Of a DNA stretch of 64,000 bases, positions 4,065-61,074 are shown piece by piece (within the stretch, counting starts at the first letter, position 1; every line of letters starts with the position of its first letter). The translations under genes were made by a program, and so were the position numbers. The notes below the pieces were generated by a model. The model worked only from the letters and a program-made list of their open reading frames with translations. It had not been told where the DNA came from and made no database searches. Source of the DNA: Candidatus Nomurabacteria bacterium (GTDB lineage Bacteria > Patescibacteriota > Patescibacteriia > HK-STAS-PATE-3). The stretch lies in contig CP060223.1 in the NCBI GenBank assembly GCA_023898465.1, positions 288,001 through 352,000 on the forward strand, written 5' to 3'.

Positions 4065-5090
4065 ATGCCACGTAAGACTTCTGCAAAACGACGACTCGCC
4101 ATTAACGGATTTGGCCGAATTGGACGAGCTGCTTTTAAAATTGCTTTAGAAAGTAAAAAGTTTGATATTGTCGCGATTAACGACCTGACTGATACCGAAA
4201 GTCTGGCCATGCTCCTGAAGCATGATTCGGTGTATCGCAACTTCAATCACAAGGTTGGCTTTACCAAGGATTCCCTTATTGTGGATGGTAAAAAAATTCG
4301 CATTCTGGCTGAAAAAGATCCGGCTATGTTGCCTTGGAAGCGTCTGAAGATTGACGTGGTGCTCGAATGTACTGGCCGCTTTGTGAAGGATGGCGCTGCC
4401 CGGGCCCATATCAAAGCAGGTGCCAAAGCAGCTGTCGTTTCTGCGCCAACCAAGGGCGGAGACATCCCAACAGCCTTACTCGGTGTGCGTCAACCAAAGC
4501 CCGGCGAGCAGGTCGTTTCTAACGCTTCTTGCACTACGAATAACGTCGCACCGGTCACTCGAGTGATTATGGAGAATTTCGGCGTGTTGCGAGCAGCCAT
4601 GACCACGATTCACTCCTACACGGCTGAGCAAAACTTGGTTGACGGCCCACCGCCACCATTGCACCGCGATTTACGACGTATGCGAGCTGCTGCGGTTAAC
4701 CTCGTACCAACCACTTCTGGCGCGGCTATTGCCACGACCGAGGTGATTCCTGAGCTTAAGGGCTCCTTTGATGGTTTTGCTATTCGCGTGCCAACACCAG
4801 TGGTGTCCTTGTCTGACTTCACTTTCCTGGTAAAGAAAAAGACCACTATCGAAGAAGTAAACCGAGCCATGAAAAAGGCGGCTGAGGATCCTTCCTACAA
4901 AAATGTGCTGGCCGTAAATGAAGAACCACGCGTCTCTAGCGACTTTATTGGCGACCCACATTCTGCAATAGTTGACTTACCGCTCACGAATGTGATAGGT
5001 GGCGACCTTGTCAAAATCGTGGCTTGGTATGATAATGAATGGGGATATTCAACGCGGCTGGTAGAGATGGCACAGAAAGTGCATATCTAA
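4065..5090 (+). CDS. gap: glyceraldehyde-3-phosphate dehydrogenase
   Basis: INGFGRIGR Rossmann motif and SNASCTTN active-site Cys motif. Confidence 0.9.
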   Translation: MPRKTSAKRRLAINGFGRIGRAAFKIALESKKFDIVAINDLTDTESLAMLLKHDSVYRNFNHKVGFTKDSLIVDGKKIRILAEKDPAMLPWKRLKIDVVLECTGRFVKDGAARAHIKAGAKAAVVSAPTKGGDIPTALLGVRQPKPGEQVVSNASCTTNNVAPVTRVIMENFGVLRAAMTTIHSYTAEQNLVDGPPPPLHRDLRRMRAAAVNLVPTTSGAAIATTEVIPELKGSFDGFAIRVPTPVVSLSDFTFLVKKKTTIEEVNRAMKKAAEDPSYKNVLAVNEEPRVSSDFIGDPHSAIVDLPLTNVIGGDLVKIVAWYDNEWGYSTRLVEMAQKVHI

Positions 5091-5126
5091 AAGCACGCAA
5101 AAAACGAAAGGGGGTGTATTCCGTAC

Positions 5127-5312
5127 ATGTTACAGCTTAATTCATCAATGCTCGCCAGAGCCTTTCTCTGGTTCGGCCTCGTTTGTGGGTTGTTTGCCGT
5201 ATTAACCCAGCTGTCTGGTAAGACTTTCTTTGCCAGCTCGTTTTTCTATCTACAGGCCGGTATTTTAGGCGTCTTAGCCAGCATTGCCGTCCGAATGGAT
5301 AAGAATAAGTAG
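5127..5312 (+). CDS. small two-TM membrane protein (hypothetical)
   Basis: 61-aa ORF with two hydrophobic segments. Good RBS (AAGGGGGTG) 8 nt upstream. Confidence 0.35.
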   Translation: MLQLNSSMLARAFLWFGLVCGLFAVLTQLSGKTFFASSFFYLQAGILGVLASIAVRMDKNK

Positions 5313-5381
5313 TTTGAGCAGGGCCATAATGAAGGGCTTGGCGAATTGCGTAGTTTTTGTTACCCTACGCTGGTATTTCGG

Positions 5382-5456
5382 GGCCCTATCGTCTAGTGGC
5401 TAGGACGCATGGTTCTCATCCATGTAACAGGGGTTCGATTCCCCTTAGGGCTACCA
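5382..5456 (+). tRNA. tRNA-Glu (anticodon CTC), CCA encoded
   Basis: Cloverleaf folded by hand: acceptor GGCCCTA/TAGGGCT, D-arm GTCTAGTGGCTAGGAC (near-identical to E. coli tRNA-Glu), anticodon stem CATGG/CCATG with loop TTCTCAT, T-arm AGGGGTTCGATTCCCCT, discriminator A, CCA. Confidence 0.9.
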
Positions 5457-5612
5457 GCCCGCTTAGCGGGCTCTGCTGATAAGGATAGAAGAAAGTAAAA
5501 GTGGAATGTTTAGCATGTTGTTTTATAAGTTAAGGAATCGAACGGGCGAGGACGTCTGCCAGCGGCAGGCGACCGCAAGCCCCGGCCTGAAGTCCCGATA
5601 GGGACGGAATGG

Positions 5613-5634
5613 TCGATTCCCCTTAGGGCTACCA
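5613..5634 (+). repeat. 22-bp direct repeat identical to the tRNA-Glu 3' end (TCGATTCCCCTTAGGGCTACCA); att-like remnant
   Basis: Exact 22-nt match to 5435-5456, located 157 bp downstream of the complete tRNA. Confidence 0.8.
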
Positions 5635-5927
5635 CGGGCCATTGCGCCGTGCGGACTGCGTCCGACCAGGTCGGACTCCGCCCTTACGGCGCATGTCCCT
5701 TTCCCCATTGCAAACAGTCCCTCTCGGCAGCCTCGAGGTCCTTGGTTTGCAACGGGGGCCCCGATAAGAGTGCGGGCCCAAGTGCTCGGCATTACAAAGC
5801 GTCCCAGAAAAAATGCCAGACACAAGTCTTCGGCATTTAATGAGAAGAAGACGTAGGTCAACTTCAGAGTGAGTCACCACAAACATCGTCGCTGCGCTAG
5901 AGGCAGCATAATTCAGGAGGAAAAAAT

Positions 5928-6467
5928 ATGTCACGTAGCGTACTCATTTTCATCGTACTCCTCGTTATCCTCGCAGTAGGCGGTGGAATTGTTTGGTGGA
6001 TGGTCACCAACCCAAGCGAAAATAGCAACACAAATAATGCCGTTGTCGCGAATACCAACACTGAGGTGAATGCAAATGCTGCACCGAATATTGATGTACA
6101 GGCCGGTGCGGTGGATGTAGGACGAGAAGCCTTGCTGACCAGTGCGAACTTCCGCGCCAGCTCAGCTTCATTGCTCAGCGAATTTGACGGCCTAAGCGCC
6201 GCTGAAGATAAAAGCTACCTGGTTGTCTATTACATGTTGACGCCTTACGAAGGATCAAGCGAAAACGTGCCAAATCTGAACGATCAAAACGTTTCAGTCA
6301 GCAGCGGTGACACTTCCTATACACTGCAAGCAATTGGCACCACCCAGAGCGAAACTGATGGCGAAGAACTTGGCTATCTGCGTTTCGAAGTGCCTGTTGA
6401 CGCAAGCGGATTTGTCCTAACGATTTTAGACGGCGACATAGAGCAGACGATTGATCTGGGCTTTTAA
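5928..6467 (+). CDS. N-terminally membrane-anchored Asn/Thr-rich secreted protein (hypothetical)
   Basis: Single N-terminal TM helix then a low-complexity linker. AGGAGG RBS. Confidence 0.55.
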   Translation: MSRSVLIFIVLLVILAVGGGIVWWMVTNPSENSNTNNAVVANTNTEVNANAAPNIDVQAGAVDVGREALLTSANFRASSASLLSEFDGLSAAEDKSYLVVYYMLTPYEGSSENVPNLNDQNVSVSSGDTSYTLQAIGTTQSETDGEELGYLRFEVPVDASGFVLTILDGDIEQTIDLGF

Positions 6468-7666: not shown

Positions 7667-10600
7667 ATGGACTCTGCCCCATTAACACTACAAACGAAGA
7701 CACTGCAGAGGTCTTCCGATCTAAATAATTACAGACTCTATCGCGCAGCTCTTGAATGGGAGTTGATTGATCCTATTGTCATAGAAGACCGGGATGACAT
7801 GCATTCCGAAAGTAGTTGGCGTGATCGTCTTGAGCCGTATCATCATCAAGTAACTAACCTAATAACTTTTTGTCGTCGCCTACCTGTTACTTTACTGGCG
7901 GATGATGTCGGGTTAGGAAAAACAATTAGTGCTGGCCTAGTTTTAAGCGAGTTAATTTCGCGCGGGAGAATTTCAAAAATATTAATAGTTTGCCCAAAAA
8001 TACTTCGAGATCAGTGGAAAGAAGAATTGGAAATAAAGTTCCGAATTCCGTCCACAATTGTGACAGGAAGAGAATTAATTACGGCAAAGCCTCCTGAAGA
8101 ACCAGGAGCGGTAATTACCACATACAATACGGCCAGACTGTATTTAGATAGAATTGACCAGAATGGTTTTGAAATATTGATACTTGATGAGGCGCATAAA
8201 TTGCGGAATCTATATGGTGTTGACCCAACACCTCAAGTTGCAATTAAATTCCGTAAAGCTCTGGCTGACCGGATGTTTAAGTACGTATTAATGTTAACTG
8301 CAACGCCGATCCAGAACAGACTATGGGATCTCTACTCGTTGGTTGACTTATTAACCGTTGCACGCGGCCATGAAAATCCCTTTGGAACGCCAGGTATTTT
8401 TGCGAGAAAATTTATTGCAGATAGTCGCACACAAGCGCGTCAGCTTAATCCGGAGATGCGGGATGAGTTTCGCTCAATTATTTACGGTTATATGTCTCGG
8501 GTTCGTCGTGGAGATGCAAAACTCCACTTCCCAGAGCGGGTAGTACAGTTGCATAAAGTTGACCCAACACCAGAAGAATTGCAGTTGATCGGTGTGGTCG
8601 GAAAATCTATACAACAACTGAATGCGCTTACACAAATTGTAATCCTCCAAGCTTTGGTGAGTAGTCCAGAAGCGCTAATAAAGATGTTAGAAGGAATGGC
8701 TAAAAAAGGAACCGTACCGCGTGAGGTGTTGGCGAACGTTAAGGAATCAGCCAAAGAAATTCAAATCACTACAAAACTAAAAGGTTTGGGCGCGTTAGTT
8801 GAAAAACTTAGAAAGGAGCAACCCAATACTTGGCGGGTGGTAGTTTTTACAAGATGGCGAGAAACTCAAACAACTATCGAAACTTTTCTTGAAAAGCAAG
8901 GAGTAAAATGCGGCTTGATAAATGGCGATTCAAGTAAGCGAAATCAGGAAACAATCCAAAGATTTAAAAAAGACTTACCAGACATTAATGTAATTATTTC
9001 TACTGAAGCAGGTTCGGAGGGCGTTAACCTTCAGGCCGCTAATGTTTTGGTTAATTACGATCTCCCCTGGAATCCAATGATAGTGGAACAAAGAATAGGT
9101 CGTATTCAAAGACTTGCTTCTAATTATGCAAATGTTTCTATTTTTAATATTGTTTTGCAAAATACCTTTGAAGAATATATTGTAGGGCGCTTGATGGAAA
9201 AGTTGCAGATGGCTTCTCATGCAATTGGGGATATTGAAGCACTATTGGAAGCATCCGGCATTGATGAAGGTGAAGAAAATGGCTCAAGTGGTTTTGAAGA
9301 AAAAATTCGCCAGTTAGTAGTTGCATCTTTAGCTGGAAAAGATGTTGAGCAGGCAACTCGTAAAGCTGAACAGAGTATTTCAGAAGCTAAAACAGAATTA
9401 GACCATGAAGAAAAGAACATTAATGCTTTACTTGGGGGGATGAGTGATTCTCTAGATTCTGGTCCAAGATGTCCGAAGCTTCCTCAAACTACTAAGTCGA
9501 TGGATGTCCGTGATTTTACTACGGCTGCTCTTATGAGCTTAGGCGCGGAACTACATCCAAAAAAGGATGGTTTATTAGTTTCACAACTTGCTGGGAAAAA
9601 AGAATTAATCCGATTTGATAATAACACTCTGAGCAGTGAAGAGGAGAGTGTCTTATATGCACCGGGAACTTCAACTTTTGAACGCTTAGTCCATAAAGTT
9701 GCAAATGTAGGAAAACACATTGTTGAAGACCTTGATAAAAACCCCCAACAGCAAATTGAGAAAGTAAGTCGTCAATGGGTCGAAAGTTTTGGCGGAGACT
9801 TCGAAAATGTAACGGTAGAGGACGTTTCTCGATGTTTTGCAGGAGTAGCAATAATTCGTGCAAGATCAACAGTAGCTCACGATAGTTATGAGCGTCTCAT
9901 TGAGGTTTCGTGCGCTCCCACTGAGCATTTCAGTTTTGTGACAAGAACGGGATTGGAACCCATCGGAGACTATATTGAAAATCCGACATCTGTTGGTGCG
10001 CTTTCAGAAAAATTAATTGAAAAAGCCAGCCAAGACTCGAGTATTCTTGAGTTCTGTAGATTTTATTTAGAACGAAGATCTCAAGAAATTGCCTCCGCAG
10101 GAAATGACGAAAGAAAAAAGAAAAAGCTTGAGGATGAGTTTACGCCCCGTCTTGAATTTTCCCTAGTCGGTCTTGAGGGCAAGGTTCATCGGATAGTTAA
10201 AAATCAGGTCTCTTATAGAATTGAACGTGAGGGCCAATACAAAAGTACCCTCATGATAACCCCCTCTTCTGGGCAAGTTGATATGCCGGGGATGGGACAA
10301 TGCATGAAAACAGGTAAGACTGTACCGAGCGATTGCTTAGCAAAGTGCGAAATAAGCGGACTTATAGTATTGCGGCATTTTCTTGATCAATCAGAGATCA
10401 GTAATCGACTGGCGCTCCCTGAGCACATCGTTTTATGTACGTTAAGCAACAAGCGAGTGCTAGCGGACGAAGCTATAAAATCAGATGTTACGGGCAAACT
10501 AGTCGCAAAGAAGTTTTTAAAAACATCTTCTCTGAGTGGCAAATTCGCTGAACCACAGTTCATTAACACTTGTGAGTTTACAAAAACAGAAGTTCTGGAA

Positions 10601-11194
10601 AGCGAAATTGCGGTCAGCCAGATTTCAGGAAAAAGATATCGCATTGATGAGCAACTTAAATCCGCAGTTTCAGGAAAACTAGGCCATCGACAAGAATTTG
10701 TAGCAAGTAGTATTTCATCAGCCCCACTTCTTGAAGAAGAAGCCATTCGTTCGGTCACTGGAAAATTTTGTGCACCAATGGAAGCGAGGCCCTGCACTTG
10801 GAGTGGTCGAAAGTGTCACCCCGAAGACCTTAGGACTTGCGAGTTGACCGGAGTCCAAATTCATTCAGAGTACGTAACGCTCGAACCACCAATTCGTTTA
10901 GAAACCCTAAATAATCTTTTGAATGGCACGAGGAGCAAATCTGACAAATTGGAAGTATGGCCTTCACTTTCAAATAGCGTTACAGCTTTATTAAAAGCAA
11001 AACGTTGTAAAATTGAAACAGCAGAAGTTTCACCTAGTGACGATATTTTGGCCGCTTCTATAGAGCTTCGAACTTTTCTAGGCCTGCGCGTGAGTCACAT
11101 TGGCGTACTTTATTCAATAAAGGATGGATCCGTAGTCGGGCGTGTTGCTAGAGGCAAGCGTGGTGATAAGGGCTGGAATCAAACTAAGAACTAA
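7667..11194 (+). CDS. SNF2-family DEAD-like helicase (1175 aa) with a long uncharacterised C-terminal extension containing 15-aa tandem repeats
   Basis: Motif I ADDVGLGKT, motif II LILDEAHKLRN, motif III LTATPIQN, helicase-C STEAGSEGVNLQ and motif VI DLPWNPMIVEQRIGRIQR. About 600 aa after the helicase core have no recognised domain. Low-GC region. Confidence 0.85.
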   Translation: MDSAPLTLQTKTLQRSSDLNNYRLYRAALEWELIDPIVIEDRDDMHSESSWRDRLEPYHHQVTNLITFCRRLPVTLLADDVGLGKTISAGLVLSELISRGRISKILIVCPKILRDQWKEELEIKFRIPSTIVTGRELITAKPPEEPGAVITTYNTARLYLDRIDQNGFEILILDEAHKLRNLYGVDPTPQVAIKFRKALADRMFKYVLMLTATPIQNRLWDLYSLVDLLTVARGHENPFGTPGIFARKFIADSRTQARQLNPEMRDEFRSIIYGYMSRVRRGDAKLHFPERVVQLHKVDPTPEELQLIGVVGKSIQQLNALTQIVILQALVSSPEALIKMLEGMAKKGTVPREVLANVKESAKEIQITTKLKGLGALVEKLRKEQPNTWRVVVFTRWRETQTTIETFLEKQGVKCGLINGDSSKRNQETIQRFKKDLPDINVIISTEAGSEGVNLQAANVLVNYDLPWNPMIVEQRIGRIQRLASNYANVSIFNIVLQNTFEEYIVGRLMEKLQMASHAIGDIEALLEASGIDEGEENGSSGFEEKIRQLVVASLAGKDVEQATRKAEQSISEAKTELDHEEKNINALLGGMSDSLDSGPRCPKLPQTTKSMDVRDFTTAALMSLGAELHPKKDGLLVSQLAGKKELIRFDNNTLSSEEESVLYAPGTSTFERLVHKVANVGKHIVEDLDKNPQQQIEKVSRQWVESFGGDFENVTVEDVSRCFAGVAIIRARSTVAHDSYERLIEVSCAPTEHFSFVTRTGLEPIGDYIENPTSVGALSEKLIEKASQDSSILEFCRFYLERRSQEIASAGNDERKKKKLEDEFTPRLEFSLVGLEGKVHRIVKNQVSYRIEREGQYKSTLMITPSSGQVDMPGMGQCMKTGKTVPSDCLAKCEISGLIVLRHFLDQSEISNRLALPEHIVLCTLSNKRVLADEAIKSDVTGKLVAKKFLKTSSLSGKFAEPQFINTCEFTKTEVLESEIAVSQISGKRYRIDEQLKSAVSGKLGHRQEFVASSISSAPLLEEEAIRSVTGKFCAPMEARPCTWSGRKCHPEDLRTCELTGVQIHSEYVTLEPPIRLETLNNLLNGTRSKSDKLEVWPSLSNSVTALLKAKRCKIETAEVSPSDDILAASIELRTFLGLRVSHIGVLYSIKDGSVVGRVARGKRGDKGWNQTKN
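10301..10893 (+). repeat. about 12 tandem degenerate 15-codon repeats encoding [CS]-x-h-[ST]-G-[KR]-x8 within the helicase C-terminal region
   Basis: Protein-level periodicity: CEISG, CTLSNK, SDVTGK, SSLSGK, CEFTKT, SQISGK, SAVSGK, SSISSA, SVTGK, CTWSGR, CELTGV at 15-residue spacing. Confidence 0.7.
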
Positions 11195-11195
11195 T

Positions 11196-12686
11196 ATGAA
11201 CCCTCTACTTACAAAAACCGATTATCTTCTTTACCGGGAATGCCCAAAGAATGTTTGGTATAAAATCCAAAAACCTGAATTGTATGCTACATCGGAGCTA
11301 ACAGAGTTTGAAAAATCGATAATGGAAACAGGTAATGAGGTTGAAAAGATTGCAAGGCAACTTTTTCCAAACGGGGTGTTAGTAACTTATCGTGATGCGC
11401 GCGGTCAAGCTGAGACACAAAAGCTATTGGCGGAGAACAAGGATGTGATTTTTCAGCCAGTTTTTGTCAAAAATAACTTTTTGGCTGCTATTGATGTTCT
11501 ACAAAAAGAAAAGAATGGCAAGGGCTACAATGTTTACGAAATAAAATCGACTAGTGATGTAGATAAGAAAACACATTTTCACGACCTAGCATTTCAAGTA
11601 AACGTTCTCAGAATGACAGGCCTGGGAATTAATAAATCATTTGTCATTCATCTAAACTCTGAATATATTCGAAAGGGAGAAATTGAGCTGGATCAGTTAT
11701 TTAAAGTATCAGATGTGACGGATGAAGTAGAAAGTCTTTTACCGGATGTTGCGACTGAGGCGGAAGAAGCATTGAAGTATATTAGCCAAACTTCTGAACC
11801 AGAGGGGTACTGCTGCTGTATTTATAAAGGTCGATCAAGGCATTGTTCAACCTTTCAGCTAGCGAACCCCGAAGTACCCGAATATAGTGTCCACGATATT
11901 TCTAGGATAGGGGTAAGCAAGGCTAAATTAAAAGAGCTAATTGACGGAAGTATTTTTCACCTGGACAAGATTCCGCCACACATTAAATTAAGCGAAATTC
12001 AACAAGGTCAAGTTGAAACCTATAAATTGAATAAGGTATTAGTAGATAAGGAAAGAATTGCGGAAGAATTTAGTGGTCTCACATTCCCACTTTATTTTCT
12101 TGATTATGAAACATTTCCATCAGCAATACCAAGATATGATGGCTTTTCACCATATAAACAAATTCCGTTCCAGTATTCTGTTTACAAACTAGATTCAGTC
12201 GAGAGTGAGCCAACTCATTTTGATTTTTTGTACTCTGGTCCCGAAGACCCCAGCAAGCACTTTGCCGAGTCTTTAAGGGAACATATCGGGGATAAAGGCT
12301 CGATCATCGTTTGGCATAAAGACTTCGAGTGTGGCAGAAATAATGAAATAGGTAGTCGAATTCCTACTTCGAAGGCTTTTTTTGACTCTGTTAATCAGCG
12401 AGTATACGATCTCGAAGACATTTTCAAGAAACAATACCACGTTCATCGAGATTATAAGGGAAGCACATCTATTAAAAACGTATTGCCTGTTTTAGTGCCA
12501 GAATTAACGTATAAAGACCTTGAAATTCGTGATGGTGGCAGTGCAGCGGATAGTTGGGACAAAATAATTAGTGGTGTATATAACGAGACAGAGAAAGAAA
12601 AGGTAATAAAAGATTTAAAGATTTATTGTGGTCTTGATACATTTGCAATGTATGCTATTTGGAATTGCTTGAACAAGCTACTCTAA
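11196..12686 (+). CDS. Cas4/RecB-like PD-(D/E)xK nuclease with Cys cluster fused to a DEDD-like 3'-5' exonuclease domain (DUF2779-like architecture)
   Basis: N-terminal Cys (YRECPKN), D...EIK nuclease motifs, QxxxY-like motif, CCC-x8-C cluster, then FLDYETF (Exo I-like DxE) and YDLEDIF...H motifs. Start is 1 nt after the helicase stop, so translationally coupled. Confidence 0.6.
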   Translation: MNPLLTKTDYLLYRECPKNVWYKIQKPELYATSELTEFEKSIMETGNEVEKIARQLFPNGVLVTYRDARGQAETQKLLAENKDVIFQPVFVKNNFLAAIDVLQKEKNGKGYNVYEIKSTSDVDKKTHFHDLAFQVNVLRMTGLGINKSFVIHLNSEYIRKGEIELDQLFKVSDVTDEVESLLPDVATEAEEALKYISQTSEPEGYCCCIYKGRSRHCSTFQLANPEVPEYSVHDISRIGVSKAKLKELIDGSIFHLDKIPPHIKLSEIQQGQVETYKLNKVLVDKERIAEEFSGLTFPLYFLDYETFPSAIPRYDGFSPYKQIPFQYSVYKLDSVESEPTHFDFLYSGPEDPSKHFAESLREHIGDKGSIIVWHKDFECGRNNEIGSRIPTSKAFFDSVNQRVYDLEDIFKKQYHVHRDYKGSTSIKNVLPVLVPELTYKDLEIRDGGSAADSWDKIISGVYNETEKEKVIKDLKIYCGLDTFAMYAIWNCLNKLL

Positions 12687-12690
12687 ACCT

Positions 12691-13392
12691 ATGAGCTTTC
12701 TTAAGATTTTTAGTGATGATTCTAAAGACAAGCCAAAAGAAAATGATAGTCGGAAACCTGAATGTCCATACTGTCAGGGCGTTTTAGTTAAAATTCCTGC
12801 TAGAAAAACAAAATGTTTTCACTGTGGGAAATATATTTTTGTACGAACACAGACAAAGGACAGAAAGCTCGTTTTGGTTACTGAAGAAAATTCGGCCGCG
12901 ATAGACTCTGAATGGGAGTCAAAACAAGCCGCTACGATCACTTCATTGGTGGAGAAAGTAGATTTTACAAAGAAAAAAGAAGGTCTGCGCGAAGGGTTTG
13001 GGGACAAGGAACCCTCCGTTAGTGACATAAAGTGGGGCTTGTGGAACAAGAGGCTTCAGGAAGCAATGAAACGCAATGATTTTTCAGAACTTTCAGGAAT
13101 ATATTTTCAAATGGCTCTGCGCTTGCACGAAAGTGGAAAAGACAGCTTTAAACTTCAGGGCCAGGCTCAAAAAATGTTTTTGTTTAAAGAAAAGCAAAGC
13201 GGTGTTGTTTCTAGCGTAGAGGTTTTTTCTAGAGATGGCTGTGAAGAATGTAAGAAAATAAACGGAAAGAAATTTGTTATTTTTGAAGCACTAAAACTCA
13301 TGCCACTACCCGTTCAATCCTGCACAAACAAACTGAATAAGAATGCGCCCAATGGTTGGTGTCGATGCACTTTTCTTCCTTTTATAGATTAA
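12691..13392 (+). CDS. double zinc-ribbon protein (hypothetical)
   Basis: N-terminal CPYC-x18-CFHC and C-terminal CEEC...C-x3-C...CRC motifs. Begins 4 nt after the nuclease stop. Confidence 0.5.
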   Translation: MSFLKIFSDDSKDKPKENDSRKPECPYCQGVLVKIPARKTKCFHCGKYIFVRTQTKDRKLVLVTEENSAAIDSEWESKQAATITSLVEKVDFTKKKEGLREGFGDKEPSVSDIKWGLWNKRLQEAMKRNDFSELSGIYFQMALRLHESGKDSFKLQGQAQKMFLFKEKQSGVVSSVEVFSRDGCEECKKINGKKFVIFEALKLMPLPVQSCTNKLNKNAPNGWCRCTFLPFID

Positions 13393-50612: not shown

Positions 50613-51031
50613 GTGCTGACGTGCGCCGGATGACTGCTCCGCCTTAGGTGGAGAGGAAAGTCCGAACACCCCCCAAGCCCCCCATTTTTGAGAGGTTTGT
50701 GGAAGTAGGTCGTTCCGAAAGGGAACCGAGCAATTGGTTGTAAGCTTTCGGCCGAATAACCAATGGTTTAGGGAAAGTGTCACAGAGACAATACTGCCGA
50801 TGATCTCGCTTAGCGGGATACAGGTAATAGGTGAAAAGTAAGGGCCTAAGAATCCTTTCTCTTCATAGGTGACTATGAGGAGTGAAAAACCCGACCTGGT
50901 GCAAGATCGCATAGGTCTAGTCATTCGACTGGACGGGTAGATCGCATGATCCCGACGGCGACGTCGGGGCTAGAGAGATAGTCATCCCTCATTATGAGGA
51001 CAGAATTCGGCTTATAGGTGTGCGTCAGCAC
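50613..51031 (+). ncRNA. rnpB: RNase P RNA, bacterial type A
   Basis: Conserved blocks GAGGAAAGTCCGAACAC (P4), ACAGAGACAA, GGTAATAGGTGAAAAG, GACAGAATTCGGCTTAT (3' P4 strand). P1 helix GTGCTGACG/CGTCAGCAC closes the molecule. About 420 nt. Confidence 0.85.
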
Positions 51032-59292: not shown

Positions 59293-61074
59293 ATGAATTC
59301 CGCTGATAAGCAAATTCGAAATTTTAGTATTATCGCTCATATCGATCATGGGAAGTCGACTTTAGCCGATCGATTCTTGGAGTTGACAGGTACAGTAGAT
59401 GCTCGGCATATGCGAGCTCAGTATCTCGACCGGATGGATTTAGAGCGTGAACGGGGTATTACGATCAAGCTCAAGCCAATTCAGATGCAGTATAAGGGCT
59501 ATACCCTGAACTTGATTGATACACCAGGTCATGTGGATTTTACCTATGAGGTATCACGTTCCTTAGCAGCTGTTGAGGGGGTAATTCTCATTGTCGATGC
59601 GACGCAAGGTGTCGAGGCGCAGACAGTCGCCAATCTTTACTTAGCTTTGCAACAGGATCTACAGATCATTCCGGTTATGAACAAAATTGATCTGCCGAAT
59701 GCTGATGTGCCGCGGGTGAGGCAGGAATTAGCCCAACTCATCGGTGTGGACCCCGAGTCAATTTTAGCTGTTTCTGCCAAGACGGGGGAAGGTGTCGAAG
59801 CAGTACTTGAGCGAATTATTGCTGAAGTGCCAGCACCCAAAGGTACGCTTGATGCACCAACCCAGGCGCTTATTTTTGACTCCTACTTTGATGACTATCG
59901 AGGAGTGATTAGCTCGGTGCGAGTGGTCAACGGCGCAATTCGCAGCAATGAGGATATCCGTTTTCTTGCTACCAAAACGCAAACCAAAGCGCTCGAGGTT
60001 GGTCACTTTGGCATGGAGTTTCAACCAAAGCCTGAAATAAAAGCCGGCGAGATTGGATATATCGTGACCGGACTGCGTGACATTGAAAAGGCAAAAGTGG
60101 GTGATACGATAAGCACCACGAAAAGCGTTGCCACAGCACTGCCGGGATATCAGGCAATGAAGCCAATGGTTTTTGCCGCACTCTATTGCCAATCGGGCGA
60201 TGAGTTTGAGCGATTGCGCGAAGGAATTGAAAAGTTAAAATTGAACGACGCTGCCTTAGACTACATTCCTGAGCATTCGCCAGCACTAGGTTTTGGTTTT
60301 CGCTGTGGTTTCTTAGGCATGCTGCATATGGAAGTGGTAGAGCAGCGTCTGAAGCGAGAATTTGGTATCAGTGTTATTGTGAGCGCCCCATCAGTGGCCT
60401 ATCGAATCACTACAACAAACAAAGAAACAAAGGATTATGCAAATCCGATGGATTGGCCGGAAGCGAATCACATAGTGAAAGTTGAGGAGCCGTGGATGAG
60501 TGTAACCGTCGTCAGTCCAAACGACTGGATAGGCCCGGTCATGCAGGCAGTGACTGATCGGCGCGGGGTGTACAAGACTACCGAGTATCTCGAAGGAGGT
60601 CGCTTAGTGTTGCATTATGAAGTGCCTTTATCCTCGTTGATCAGCGATTTTCATGATACACTGAAGAGCGTATCGCAGGGTTATGCTTCTTTAAATTACG
60701 ATTATTTAGGCTTCCGAGAGGCAGACGTGACTCGATTGGATATCCACGTTGCCGAAGAGATGGTTGATGCGCTCACCATGATTGTGAATAGCGATGAGGC
60801 GTATCGAGAAGGTCGACGCGTGGTTGATACCCTCAAGGACATCCTTCCTCGTCAACAGTTTGAACTCAAAATCCAAGCCTTGATTGGCGGTAAGGTGATT
60901 GCCTCCAGCCGAATCGCTCCATTGCGCAAAGATGTCACGGCAAAACTCTATGGAGGCGATGTCACTCGTAAGCGTAAACTCTTGGAAAAGCAGAAAAAGG
61001 GAAAGAAGCGCATGAAAACCATGGGGCGCGTTTCTATCCCGGCTGATGCTTATATTAAACTGTTGCGGCGTTAA
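59293..61074 (+). CDS. lepA: elongation factor 4 (LepA)
   Basis: IRNFSIIAHIDHGKSTL G1 motif, DTPGHVDF, NKID and the LepA-specific C-terminal domain. Confidence 0.9.
   Translation: MNSADKQIRNFSIIAHIDHGKSTLADRFLELTGTVDARHMRAQYLDRMDLERERGITIKLKPIQMQYKGYTLNLIDTPGHVDFTYEVSRSLAAVEGVILIVDATQGVEAQTVANLYLALQQDLQIIPVMNKIDLPNADVPRVRQELAQLIGVDPESILAVSAKTGEGVEAVLERIIAEVPAPKGTLDAPTQALIFDSYFDDYRGVISSVRVVNGAIRSNEDIRFLATKTQTKALEVGHFGMEFQPKPEIKAGEIGYIVTGLRDIEKAKVGDTISTTKSVATALPGYQAMKPMVFAALYCQSGDEFERLREGIEKLKLNDAALDYIPEHSPALGFGFRCGFLGMLHMEVVEQRLKREFGISVIVSAPSVAYRITTTNKETKDYANPMDWPEANHIVKVEEPWMSVTVVSPNDWIGPVMQAVTDRRGVYKTTEYLEGGRLVLHYEVPLSSLISDFHDTLKSVSQGYASLNYDYLGFREADVTRLDIHVAEEMVDALTMIVNSDEAYREGRRVVDTLKDILPRQQFELKIQALIGGKVIASSRIAPLRKDVTAKLYGGDVTRKRKLLEKQKKGKKRMKTMGRVSIPADAYIKLLRR

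Follow-up and report, generated by a model that had tools for sequence, protein, structure and literature searches.

Organization of the interval between tRNA-Glu and gene 5928

In the window (the whole stretch of 64,000 nucleotides that was analyzed), which comes from a compact genome with genes mainly on the + strand, 471 nt separate the end of a tRNA-Glu(CUC) gene from the ATG at position 5928. The neighboring genes encode GAPDH, a 61-aa protein, a 179-aa protein, a glycosyltransferase, a SNF2 helicase, and a DUF2779 protein. Exact-protein look-ups returned the same organism only, and the 61-aa and 179-aa proteins match nothing beyond their own organism (a "Candidatus Nomurabacteria" MAG, H6760_01405 and H6760_01415). 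The features of the locus are listed in Table 1.

Table 1. Features of the tRNA-Glu locus (window coordinates) and of cargo genes discussed in the text (coordinates of the loci named)
Feature	Position	Strand	Remarks
tRNA-Glu(CUC)	5382-5456	+	Intact, CCA encoded; ARAGORN; Rfam tRNA, 62.5 bits
Proximal repeat copy	5435-5456	+	Last 22 nt of tRNA-Glu; direct repeat search
Short GC hairpin, GCCCGC-TTA-GCGGGC	5457-5471	+	Directly after the tRNA; MFE fold
AT-rich linker	5472-5533	+	-10-like TATAAG at 5524-5529, 5 nt ahead of the module
Three-way-junction module	5534-5620	+	Inverted repeat; MFE, -47 kcal/mol, z = -3.05
P1	5534-5541 (GGAATCGA) paired with 5613-5620	+	Inverted copy of T-loop/T-stem; closing helix
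P2	5544-5582	+	Hairpin domain inside P1 (MFE fold)
P3	5584-5612	+	Hairpin GUCCC-GAUA-GGGAC at 5592-5605 (MFE fold)
Distal exact copy of the tRNA-Glu 3′ end (TCGATTCCCCTTAGGGCTACCA)	5613-5634	+	Read as the displaced original end
Long GC-rich hairpin, 25-nt arms	5643-5693	+	Begins 9 nt after the distal copy
Hairpin CCCCATTGCAAAC/GTTTGCAACGGGG	5703-5757	+	
Hairpin GGGCCC..GGGCCC	5756-5779	+	
Hairpin AAATGCC..GGCATTT	5811-5838	+	In the lower-GC part
AGGAGG RBS and ATG of 179-aa protein	5915-5930	+	Membrane-anchored protein
PF05635 (23S rRNA-intervening-sequence) cargo	L101 (oriented -), 9583-9927	-	tRNA-Lys cassette
PF05635 cargo	L133 (oriented -), 10828-11172; second copy from 11498	-	tRNA-Lys cassettes

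The original prediction described the interval as richer in GC than the neighboring genes, and this is borne out for positions 5534 to 5800, which are ~65% GC (65.3% for 5534 to 5634 and 64.5% for 5635 to 5800, versus a window mean of 47.3% and ~49 to 50% in the flanking genes). The interval is not uniform, with 29% GC in the AT-rich linker and 45% in positions 5801 to 5927. The long, near-perfect stems that had been pointed out are real: the arms at 5643 to 5667 and 5669 to 5693 are 25 nt long and 80% complementary, and those at 5703 to 5715 and 5745 to 5757 are 13 nt long and 92% complementary. The GGGCCC palindromes are present at 5756 and 5774, and the strong AGGAGG RBS for gene 5928 lies at 5915 to 5920, 7 nt ahead of the ATG. 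Compared with dinucleotide shuffles, positions 5457 to 5927 as a whole fold with z = -4.13 on the + strand and -3.66 on the - strand, and none of 100 shuffles is equally stable. Folded alone, positions 5529 to 5634 have z = -3.05 and positions 5635 to 5860 have z = -2.88.

The statement that the only open reading frames here are antisense did not hold, since frames of 63 and 41 aa lie on the + strand in addition to those of 112 and 101 aa on the - strand. A HMMER search with the longest, the 112-aa antisense frame, against 1.84 billion protein representatives gave two matches (E ~1e-5), and both are internally repetitive proteins. A coding explanation of positions 5457 to 5927 is therefore unlikely, and this search turned up no credible homolog that would make the frame a protein-coding gene. 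The match that was followed up (P0005) proved to be the translation of a 174-nt tandem repeat with no relation to tRNAs, and the 112-aa frame was rejected as a gene. The repeat array itself occupies positions 4750 to 5650 of its locus (L142), where it is annotated as a 214-aa protein. The original prediction had also raised a structured RNA, and Rfam 15 contains no family that matches positions 5457 to 5927 at the gathering threshold or at E = 10; the scan gave only noise (at most 17 bits, with E at least 1.4).

A 178-nt unit bounded by two copies of the tRNA-Glu 3′ end

An exact second copy of the terminal 22 nt of tRNA-Glu (TCGATTCCCCTTAGGGCTACCA), which span T55 in the T-loop through CCA, occupies positions 5613 to 5634; the chance expectation for such a repeat is 0.01 matches per window. 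As in tRNA-targeting integrative elements, the tRNA is intact and a direct repeat of its 3′ segment bounds an insert. The unit so defined (5457 to 5634, 178 nt) consists of a hairpin, the AT-rich linker, a three-way-junction module, and the 22-nt copy of the tRNA 3′ end. It holds no gene, and no recombinase is encoded in its 178 bp or beside it in the window. tRNA-Glu at 5382 to 5456 is the sole tRNA that ARAGORN reports; the distal copy, which has neither the 5′ T-stem nor the 5′ strand of the acceptor, lacks a complete cloverleaf or tmRNA fold and is not a second gene. There are no other copies of positions 5457 to 5927 within the window.

Inside the unit, the hairpin at 5457 to 5471 occupies the position that a terminator has in most related units and is not followed by a T-run. 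The TATAAG near the end of the linker could, judging from its letters, act as a promoter element, and a consensus promoter scan did not flag it. At 5534 to 5543, ~70 nt before the distal copy, is an inverted T-arm (GGAATCGAAC), the reverse complement of the T-loop plus T-stem. This arrangement is that of a class of units described below, whose layout we define as a tRNA, a short spacer, an inverted T-arm, 58 to 90 nt of structure, and a copy running from the T-loop to CCA. In the window, the spacer is 77 nt, the inverted T-arm begins at 5534, and the copy begins at 5613.

One way to obtain two identical copies so close together would be a local duplication of tRNA-Glu that has since decayed to a pseudogene fragment, with no mobile origin. 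We regard this as highly improbable, because identity stops abruptly at T55, the same sharp boundary is found in unrelated loci, and no similarity to the tRNA body is seen across the 53 nt that precede the distal copy (5560 to 5612). The closest GAPDH relative in the collections searched is 64% identical, and these collections contain no close relative that would give an empty-site comparison for the window locus.

A counterpart in a Kerfeldbacteria genome

Among 80 loci gathered via GAPDH, one other than the window has a tRNA-Glu beside gap. This locus (L002) is from a Kerfeldbacteria MAG whose GAPDH is 63% identical to that of the window, and its gene order is the same: gap, a 61-aa membrane protein, and tRNA-Glu, with homologs of the 179-aa protein and the glycosyltransferase further on (the 179-aa homolog is between the unit and the glycosyltransferase gene). 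Its tRNA-Glu is followed by 55 nt, an inverted T-arm (GGGATTCGAA), a GC-rich structure of ~76 nt, and a copy of its own 3′ end, TCGAATCCCCATGGCGGTACCA, a 22-nt sequence that differs from the one in the window. A resolvase fragment and other junk lie downstream of the unit. None of the other eight tRNAs in the GAPDH-fetched loci has such a 3′-end repeat.

The Kerfeldbacteria locus also bears on positions 5635 to 5927, the half of the interval beyond the unit. It has a strong hairpin at a similar offset after its distal copy, and hairpins or terminators follow close behind this copy in two metagenome loci (L097 and L120). These similarly placed hairpins make it probable that the hairpin at 5643 to 5693 was the native terminator of tRNA-Glu or a hairpin of its original 3′ flank. 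The three hairpins that follow it (5703 to 5757, 5756 to 5779, and 5811 to 5838), together with the RBS, probably are the flank or leader of gene 5928. Positions 5635 to 5927 contain no decayed extra unit and no tRNA fragment, consensus scans of them gave nothing above shuffle background, and among all sequences fetched only contigs of the same organism are similar to them.

The original prediction of a long structured leader can apply only to positions 5635 to 5927, which would then be a riboswitch-like or similar element controlling the 179-aa gene. Four consecutive hairpins with z = -2.88, a stretch that ends at a strong RBS, and an intergenic space unusually long for a compact genome are what such a leader would look like. 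However, there is no Rfam match even at E = 10, no homologs were found for a covariation test, the orthologous gene in the Kerfeldbacteria locus is preceded by unrelated sequence, and the first hairpin is placed like the tRNA flank hairpins of other loci. We therefore consider a regulatory leader of this length very unlikely.

Recurrence of the layout in metagenomes

We scanned metagenomes with the pattern "GGAWTCGAA, 58-88 nt, TCGAWTCCCC N8 ACCA," which imposes the P1 complementarity but leaves the presence and identity of an upstream gene free. Of the 52 loci recovered, 20 have a tRNA (Glu, Lys, Ala, Arg, Pro, or Gly) or a tmRNA with the same 3′ end 43 to 77 nt upstream. In another seven, a unit of the same kind follows cargo, another unit, or the contig end. 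The remainder are real tRNAs with a chance upstream match (7 loci), a separate soil tRNA-like family (11), long palindromes (3), and unclear cases (4). The layout is found after tRNA and tmRNA genes of widely differing bacteria. When 18 unit-bearing loci were compared with Rfam, only tRNAs and tmRNAs were matched.

The members of the soil family (L086, L089, L094, L100, L108, L109, L112, L116, L123, L127, and L136) share a tRNA-like sequence of ~100 nt that ends in ...AGGGGTTCGAATCCCCTCGGGTCCACCA, and some copies also possess the matching 5′ strand of the acceptor. ARAGORN detects no tRNA in any of the 11, and the one compared with Rfam (L086) has no match at the gathering threshold. The three long perfect palindromes (L096, L105, and L121) consist of two facing inverted tRNA 3′ halves and could be real inverted duplications or assembly artifacts.

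Applied to viral contigs, the same pattern gave a single match, which is a genuine tRNA-Leu and not a free element. Neither the interval after tRNA-Glu nor one Firmicutes-type unit had any relevant BLAST match in phages, and the latter had none in plasmids. The only recombinase adjoining a unit is a large serine recombinase whose gene ends just upstream of the unit in L132; none of seven loci with homologs of it (four phage records and three metagenome contigs) has an adjoining unit, and the link was rejected. Separately, a 332-kb viral contig (IMGVR_UViG_3300033405_000002; L084, 4611 to 4684, - strand) carries a tRNA that ARAGORN assigns as Glu-CTC, and the last 22 nt of this tRNA are identical to the 3′ end of tRNA-Glu in the window.

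Arrays, cargo, and polarity of the units

Several loci contain more than one unit. A tRNA-Ala is followed by four tandem units in L095, L103 has two units, L115 has at least two, and L106 and L130 each combine two units of different types. Units start right behind ...ACCA, usually with a terminator hairpin first, and end at the next ...ACCA, and the period is 140 to 178 nt across more than 20 independent loci. Some units carry genes. In L085, a larger unit of ~1.4 to 1.5 kb, which carries an S51 peptidase gene plus one other gene, comes after an empty unit of 183 nt, and the two units end in the same module. One empty unit and one with a gene for a 23S-IVS (four-helix-bundle) protein are found in L101, and its relative L133 has two copies of the 23S-IVS cargo unit, which shows that unit content differs between related loci; it also varies among L104, L106, and L130. 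The PF05635 family to which this cargo belongs is otherwise known from insertions in rRNA genes.

The ends of the copies indicate the order of events. In three loci (L097, L129, and L119), the tRNA ends in ACTT or ACAT and the distal copy ends in ACCA, and in L103 both the tRNA and the inner unit end in ACGA, with ACCA only on the distal copy. Since CCA is kept only on the distal copy in these four loci, their sequences point to the distal copy being the original 3′ end and to new units entering at the tRNA. The two copies in the window are identical and carry no polarity information, and we infer the polarity there from the same four loci. Distal copies are mutated or shortened in L091, L115, L101, and L133, as expected of a displaced fragment. 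In most families, the identity between unit tail and tRNA begins at T55, which would mark the left edge of the exchange. Two units follow a tRNA-Glu(UUC) in L135 (2292 to 2671), and their 3′ ends correspond to an acceptor of the tRNA-Glu(CUC) type and not to that of the adjacent tRNA, a mismatch suggesting that a unit tail need not match the neighboring tRNA.

Integration at a tRNA classically leaves a direct repeat that runs from the T-loop to CCA, and the window unit could in principle be the scar of a conventional prophage or genomic island, that is, of a tyrosine-integrase element that lost everything between its attachment arms and whose hairpins are incidental. The resolvase fragment and other junk downstream of the Kerfeldbacteria unit are consistent with this. 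However, random deletion would not yield 140 to 178 nt in more than 20 independent loci, and an inverted T-arm is present 58 to 88 nt before the distal copy in both cases that were not selected for it, the window and the Kerfeldbacteria locus. Neither the free element that was sought in the viral scan nor any relevant phage or plasmid sequence was found, and the compensatory changes described below are not expected of incidental helices. An island scar is thus a distinctly unlikely source of the unit.

The three-way-junction module

In the MFE fold, P1, P2, and P3 form a three-way junction and the acceptor-strand-plus-ACCA tail is single-stranded. The P1/P2/P3 architecture is common to 12 CPR-type units, that of the window and 11 others. 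A covariance model built from four tRNA-Glu units, with the window excluded, recognizes positions 5534 to 5634 at 32.2 bits (E = 6e-5) and the 3′ end of tRNA-Glu itself at 13.5 bits, but chance cases of a tRNA plus an upstream GGAWTCGAA reach 23 to 30 bits on the same model, and the score of the window derives mainly from P1, the base of P2, and the tRNA-derived end. In global alignments with seven units, the interior of P2 and P3 in the window has no significant similarity (z at most 1.65). Because the score is near those of the chance cases and comes from P1 and the tRNA-derived end, the window unit is assigned to the class by its architecture and not by homology of P2 and P3. The model also matches positions 59683 to 59779 (+ strand; 19.2 bits, E = 0.036) inside a long open reading frame (59293 to 61074), probably by chance.

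The original prediction looked to covariation for support of the structure. A single joint alignment of all CPR-type units failed, as the internal regions are too diverged. In two subfamily alignments, small samples of five sequences each from which the structures themselves were derived, both partners differ in 13 and 14 pairs, and 92% and 88% of the cells are paired. The observed values were never reached in 500 shuffles, and values are much lower when the partners are slid by 1 to 3 columns. Units inside the L095 array likewise differ from one another by compensatory changes. In these small samples of related units the helices covary; the row of the window aligns poorly.

In each of the 12 CPR-type units, the tRNA-sense strand gives a more stable fold than its complement, by 1.2 to 10.8 kcal/mol with RNA parameters and by 0.3 to 4.2 kcal/mol with DNA parameters, and these units are 55 to 63% purine. 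Firmicutes-type units have no such strand asymmetry in folding. The covarying helices, together with the asymmetry in CPR-type units, argue that selection acts on a single folded strand, be it RNA or single-stranded DNA, and are hard to reconcile with a purely double-stranded protein-binding site.

These properties are also those of a small RNA gene, the main rival to an insertion. Positions 5534 to 5634 would then be a structured RNA of ~100 nt in tRNA sense, made from TATAAG or by read-through, in which a three-way junction carries a single-stranded tail identical to the tRNA-Glu 3′ end. The duplicated tRNA end would be part of the function of the RNA, which might serve the host or an element, e.g., as a decoy or guide for an enzyme that recognizes tRNA 3′ ends. 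Covarying helices, the folding advantage of the tRNA-sense strand in 12 of 12 CPR-type units, and their purine richness all fit this proposal, as do a G-U pair kept in four of five sequences, the TATAAG 5 nt ahead of P1, and the terminator hairpins after most units. It is harder to reconcile with the lack of an Rfam match at any threshold, the lack of strand asymmetry in Firmicutes-type units, and the distance of only 10 to 35 nt between the upstream terminator and P1 in most units, which does not leave room for a standard promoter. Moreover, the arrays, the cargo-bearing units, and the CCA polarity point to a history of DNA insertion. We consider an RNA gene unlikely on the whole, although it is a serious competitor.

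A proposed miniature integrative cassette at tRNA-Glu

On balance, we lean toward the interpretation that positions 5457 to 5634 are a miniature, gene-less integrative cassette of 178 bp that targets tRNA-Glu and is followed by displaced native flank. Of the readings in the original prediction, degraded mobile DNA comes closest for this part of the interval, but the unit appears undegraded and has an ordered layout that recurs behind many tRNAs and tmRNAs. Site-specific recombination would place the cassette in the T-loop of tRNA-Glu(CUC), and the cassette would supply its own copy of the last 22 nt so that the tRNA stays intact. After this copy would come, in order, the small hairpin, the AT-rich linker, and the GC-rich three-way-junction module at the right end. 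The original 3′ end of the tRNA would have been pushed 178 nt downstream to 5613 to 5634, where its T-loop and T-stem bases could pair with the inverted T-arm copy at 5534 to 5541 and close the module. The hairpin at 5643 to 5693 would be the original 3′ flank of the tRNA and the remainder up to 5927 flank plus the leader of gene 5928, and the junction before insertion would have read ...GGGGT + TCGATTCCCCTTAGGGCTACCA-CGGGCCATTGCG. Such units would be moved by a recombinase supplied in trans, and the folded module, as single-stranded DNA or tRNA-sense RNA, might serve as a recognition module or might neutralize the displaced 3′ end.

Several features favor a cassette. The exact repeat spans T55 to CCA, as a crossover in the T-loop should produce, the Kerfeldbacteria locus has the same layout with its own, different, 22-nt end, and 20 scan loci have a matching upstream tRNA or tmRNA that the pattern did not require. 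The arrays, the cargo-bearing units, the differing unit content, and the CCA polarity of the copies are consistent with repeated insertion, as is the tight size range of 140 to 178 nt, which is unlike that of random deletion scars. Twelve CPR-type units share a three-way junction, with helices that covary in two subfamilies, and there is a precedent for serial tRNA integration in tycheposons, for which the outward displacement of older elements is documented. Several observations count against a cassette. No recombinase gene lies near the unit in the window, the recombinase beside the L132 unit had no counterpart with an adjoining unit in the seven loci inspected, the interior of the window unit has no significant similarity to other units, and the P1 complementarity was built into the metagenome pattern. 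Moreover, GC content is high on both sides of the distal copy, which is odd for a border between an element and native flank, and tRNA-sense folding and purine richness fit an RNA role at least equally well.

A broader proposal, which we put forward tentatively and think less likely to be right than wrong by some way, is that the units are the cassettes of a capture system of the integron type, as yet undescribed, for which the T-loop of tRNA and tmRNA genes serves as the fixed entry site. Empty or gene-carrying, the cassettes would end in a folded single-strand module mimicking the T-arm target, and each would bring a spare tRNA 3′ end and a terminator, leaving the essential gene intact after each insertion. 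Both CPR bacteria and Firmicutes would harbor the system, which would rely on a putative recombinase or RNA-guided enzyme.

Comparison with known systems

Integration at tRNA genes is already known and is a main route by which genomic islands are built. A folded unit of 140 to 178 nt closed by an inverted T-arm, in contrast, has no match in Rfam and is not previously described in the literature searched. Elements that target tRNA and tmRNA genes (tyrosine-integrase islands, tycheposons, and CIMEs) resemble the units in repeating the tRNA 3′ end with the gene restored, in serial integration at one tRNA with older copies outward and partial-tRNA scars, and in carrying cargo genes, as some of the units do. 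They differ in that the units are only 140 to 178 bp, with no integrase or other protein encoded, and in the three-way junction with its inverted T-arm, which the literature searched does not describe for those elements.

Integron cassettes with attC sites also form arrays beside one fixed primary site with the newest cassette nearest, and they end in an imperfect palindrome in which pairing is kept, sequence varies, and one strand folds better. The attC boxes (R''/R', RYYYAAC/GTTRRRY) are not matched by the unit ends (GGAATCGAAC and TCGATTCC), no IntI gene was seen, a tRNA T-loop takes the role of primary site, and most cassettes are empty. The folded attP of the CTX-phi type, a single-stranded hairpin mimic of the chromosomal XerCD target, shares with the units inverted target-like copies ~70 to 90 nt apart that can fold into a stem recreating the duplex target, and after integration the inverted copy, loop, and direct copy are all at one end of the element. 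Unlike CTX-phi, the units have a tRNA T-arm instead of dif as the target and no phage genome between their ends. Finally, PATEs (non-autonomous IS200/IS605 derivatives) and TnpB omega-RNAs are, like the units, small, gene-less, strand-specific hairpin elements in which a structured scaffold is followed by 3′ sequence identical to the flanking target. Their target is not duplicated, however, whereas that of the units is, and for the units no TnpA or TnpB was seen and the tail is partly paired within the scaffold.

To our knowledge, the mobile elements of CPR bacteria are poorly characterized. If gene-less folded units of ~150 bp do insert repeatedly at tRNA and tmRNA genes, they would represent either a minimal form of non-autonomous integration or a new structured RNA linked to tRNA 3′ ends, and they would explain a class of partial-tRNA signals and overlong intergenic regions that annotation pipelines leave blank. 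In the window, a previously unexplained GC-rich stretch is now a dissected locus with testable junctions.

Other features of the window

Two further regions of the window were noted. Positions 7667 to 13392, which encode a 1,175-aa SNF2-family helicase, a 514-aa DUF2779 protein, and a 233-aa open reading frame, are 37 to 42% GC (versus 47%), and this composition suggests horizontal acquisition of the block; it is not bounded by a further copy of the tRNA 3′ end. Positions 50618 to 51030 (+ strand) match bacterial RNase P RNA class A at 164.8 bits and are an ordinary gene for this RNA.
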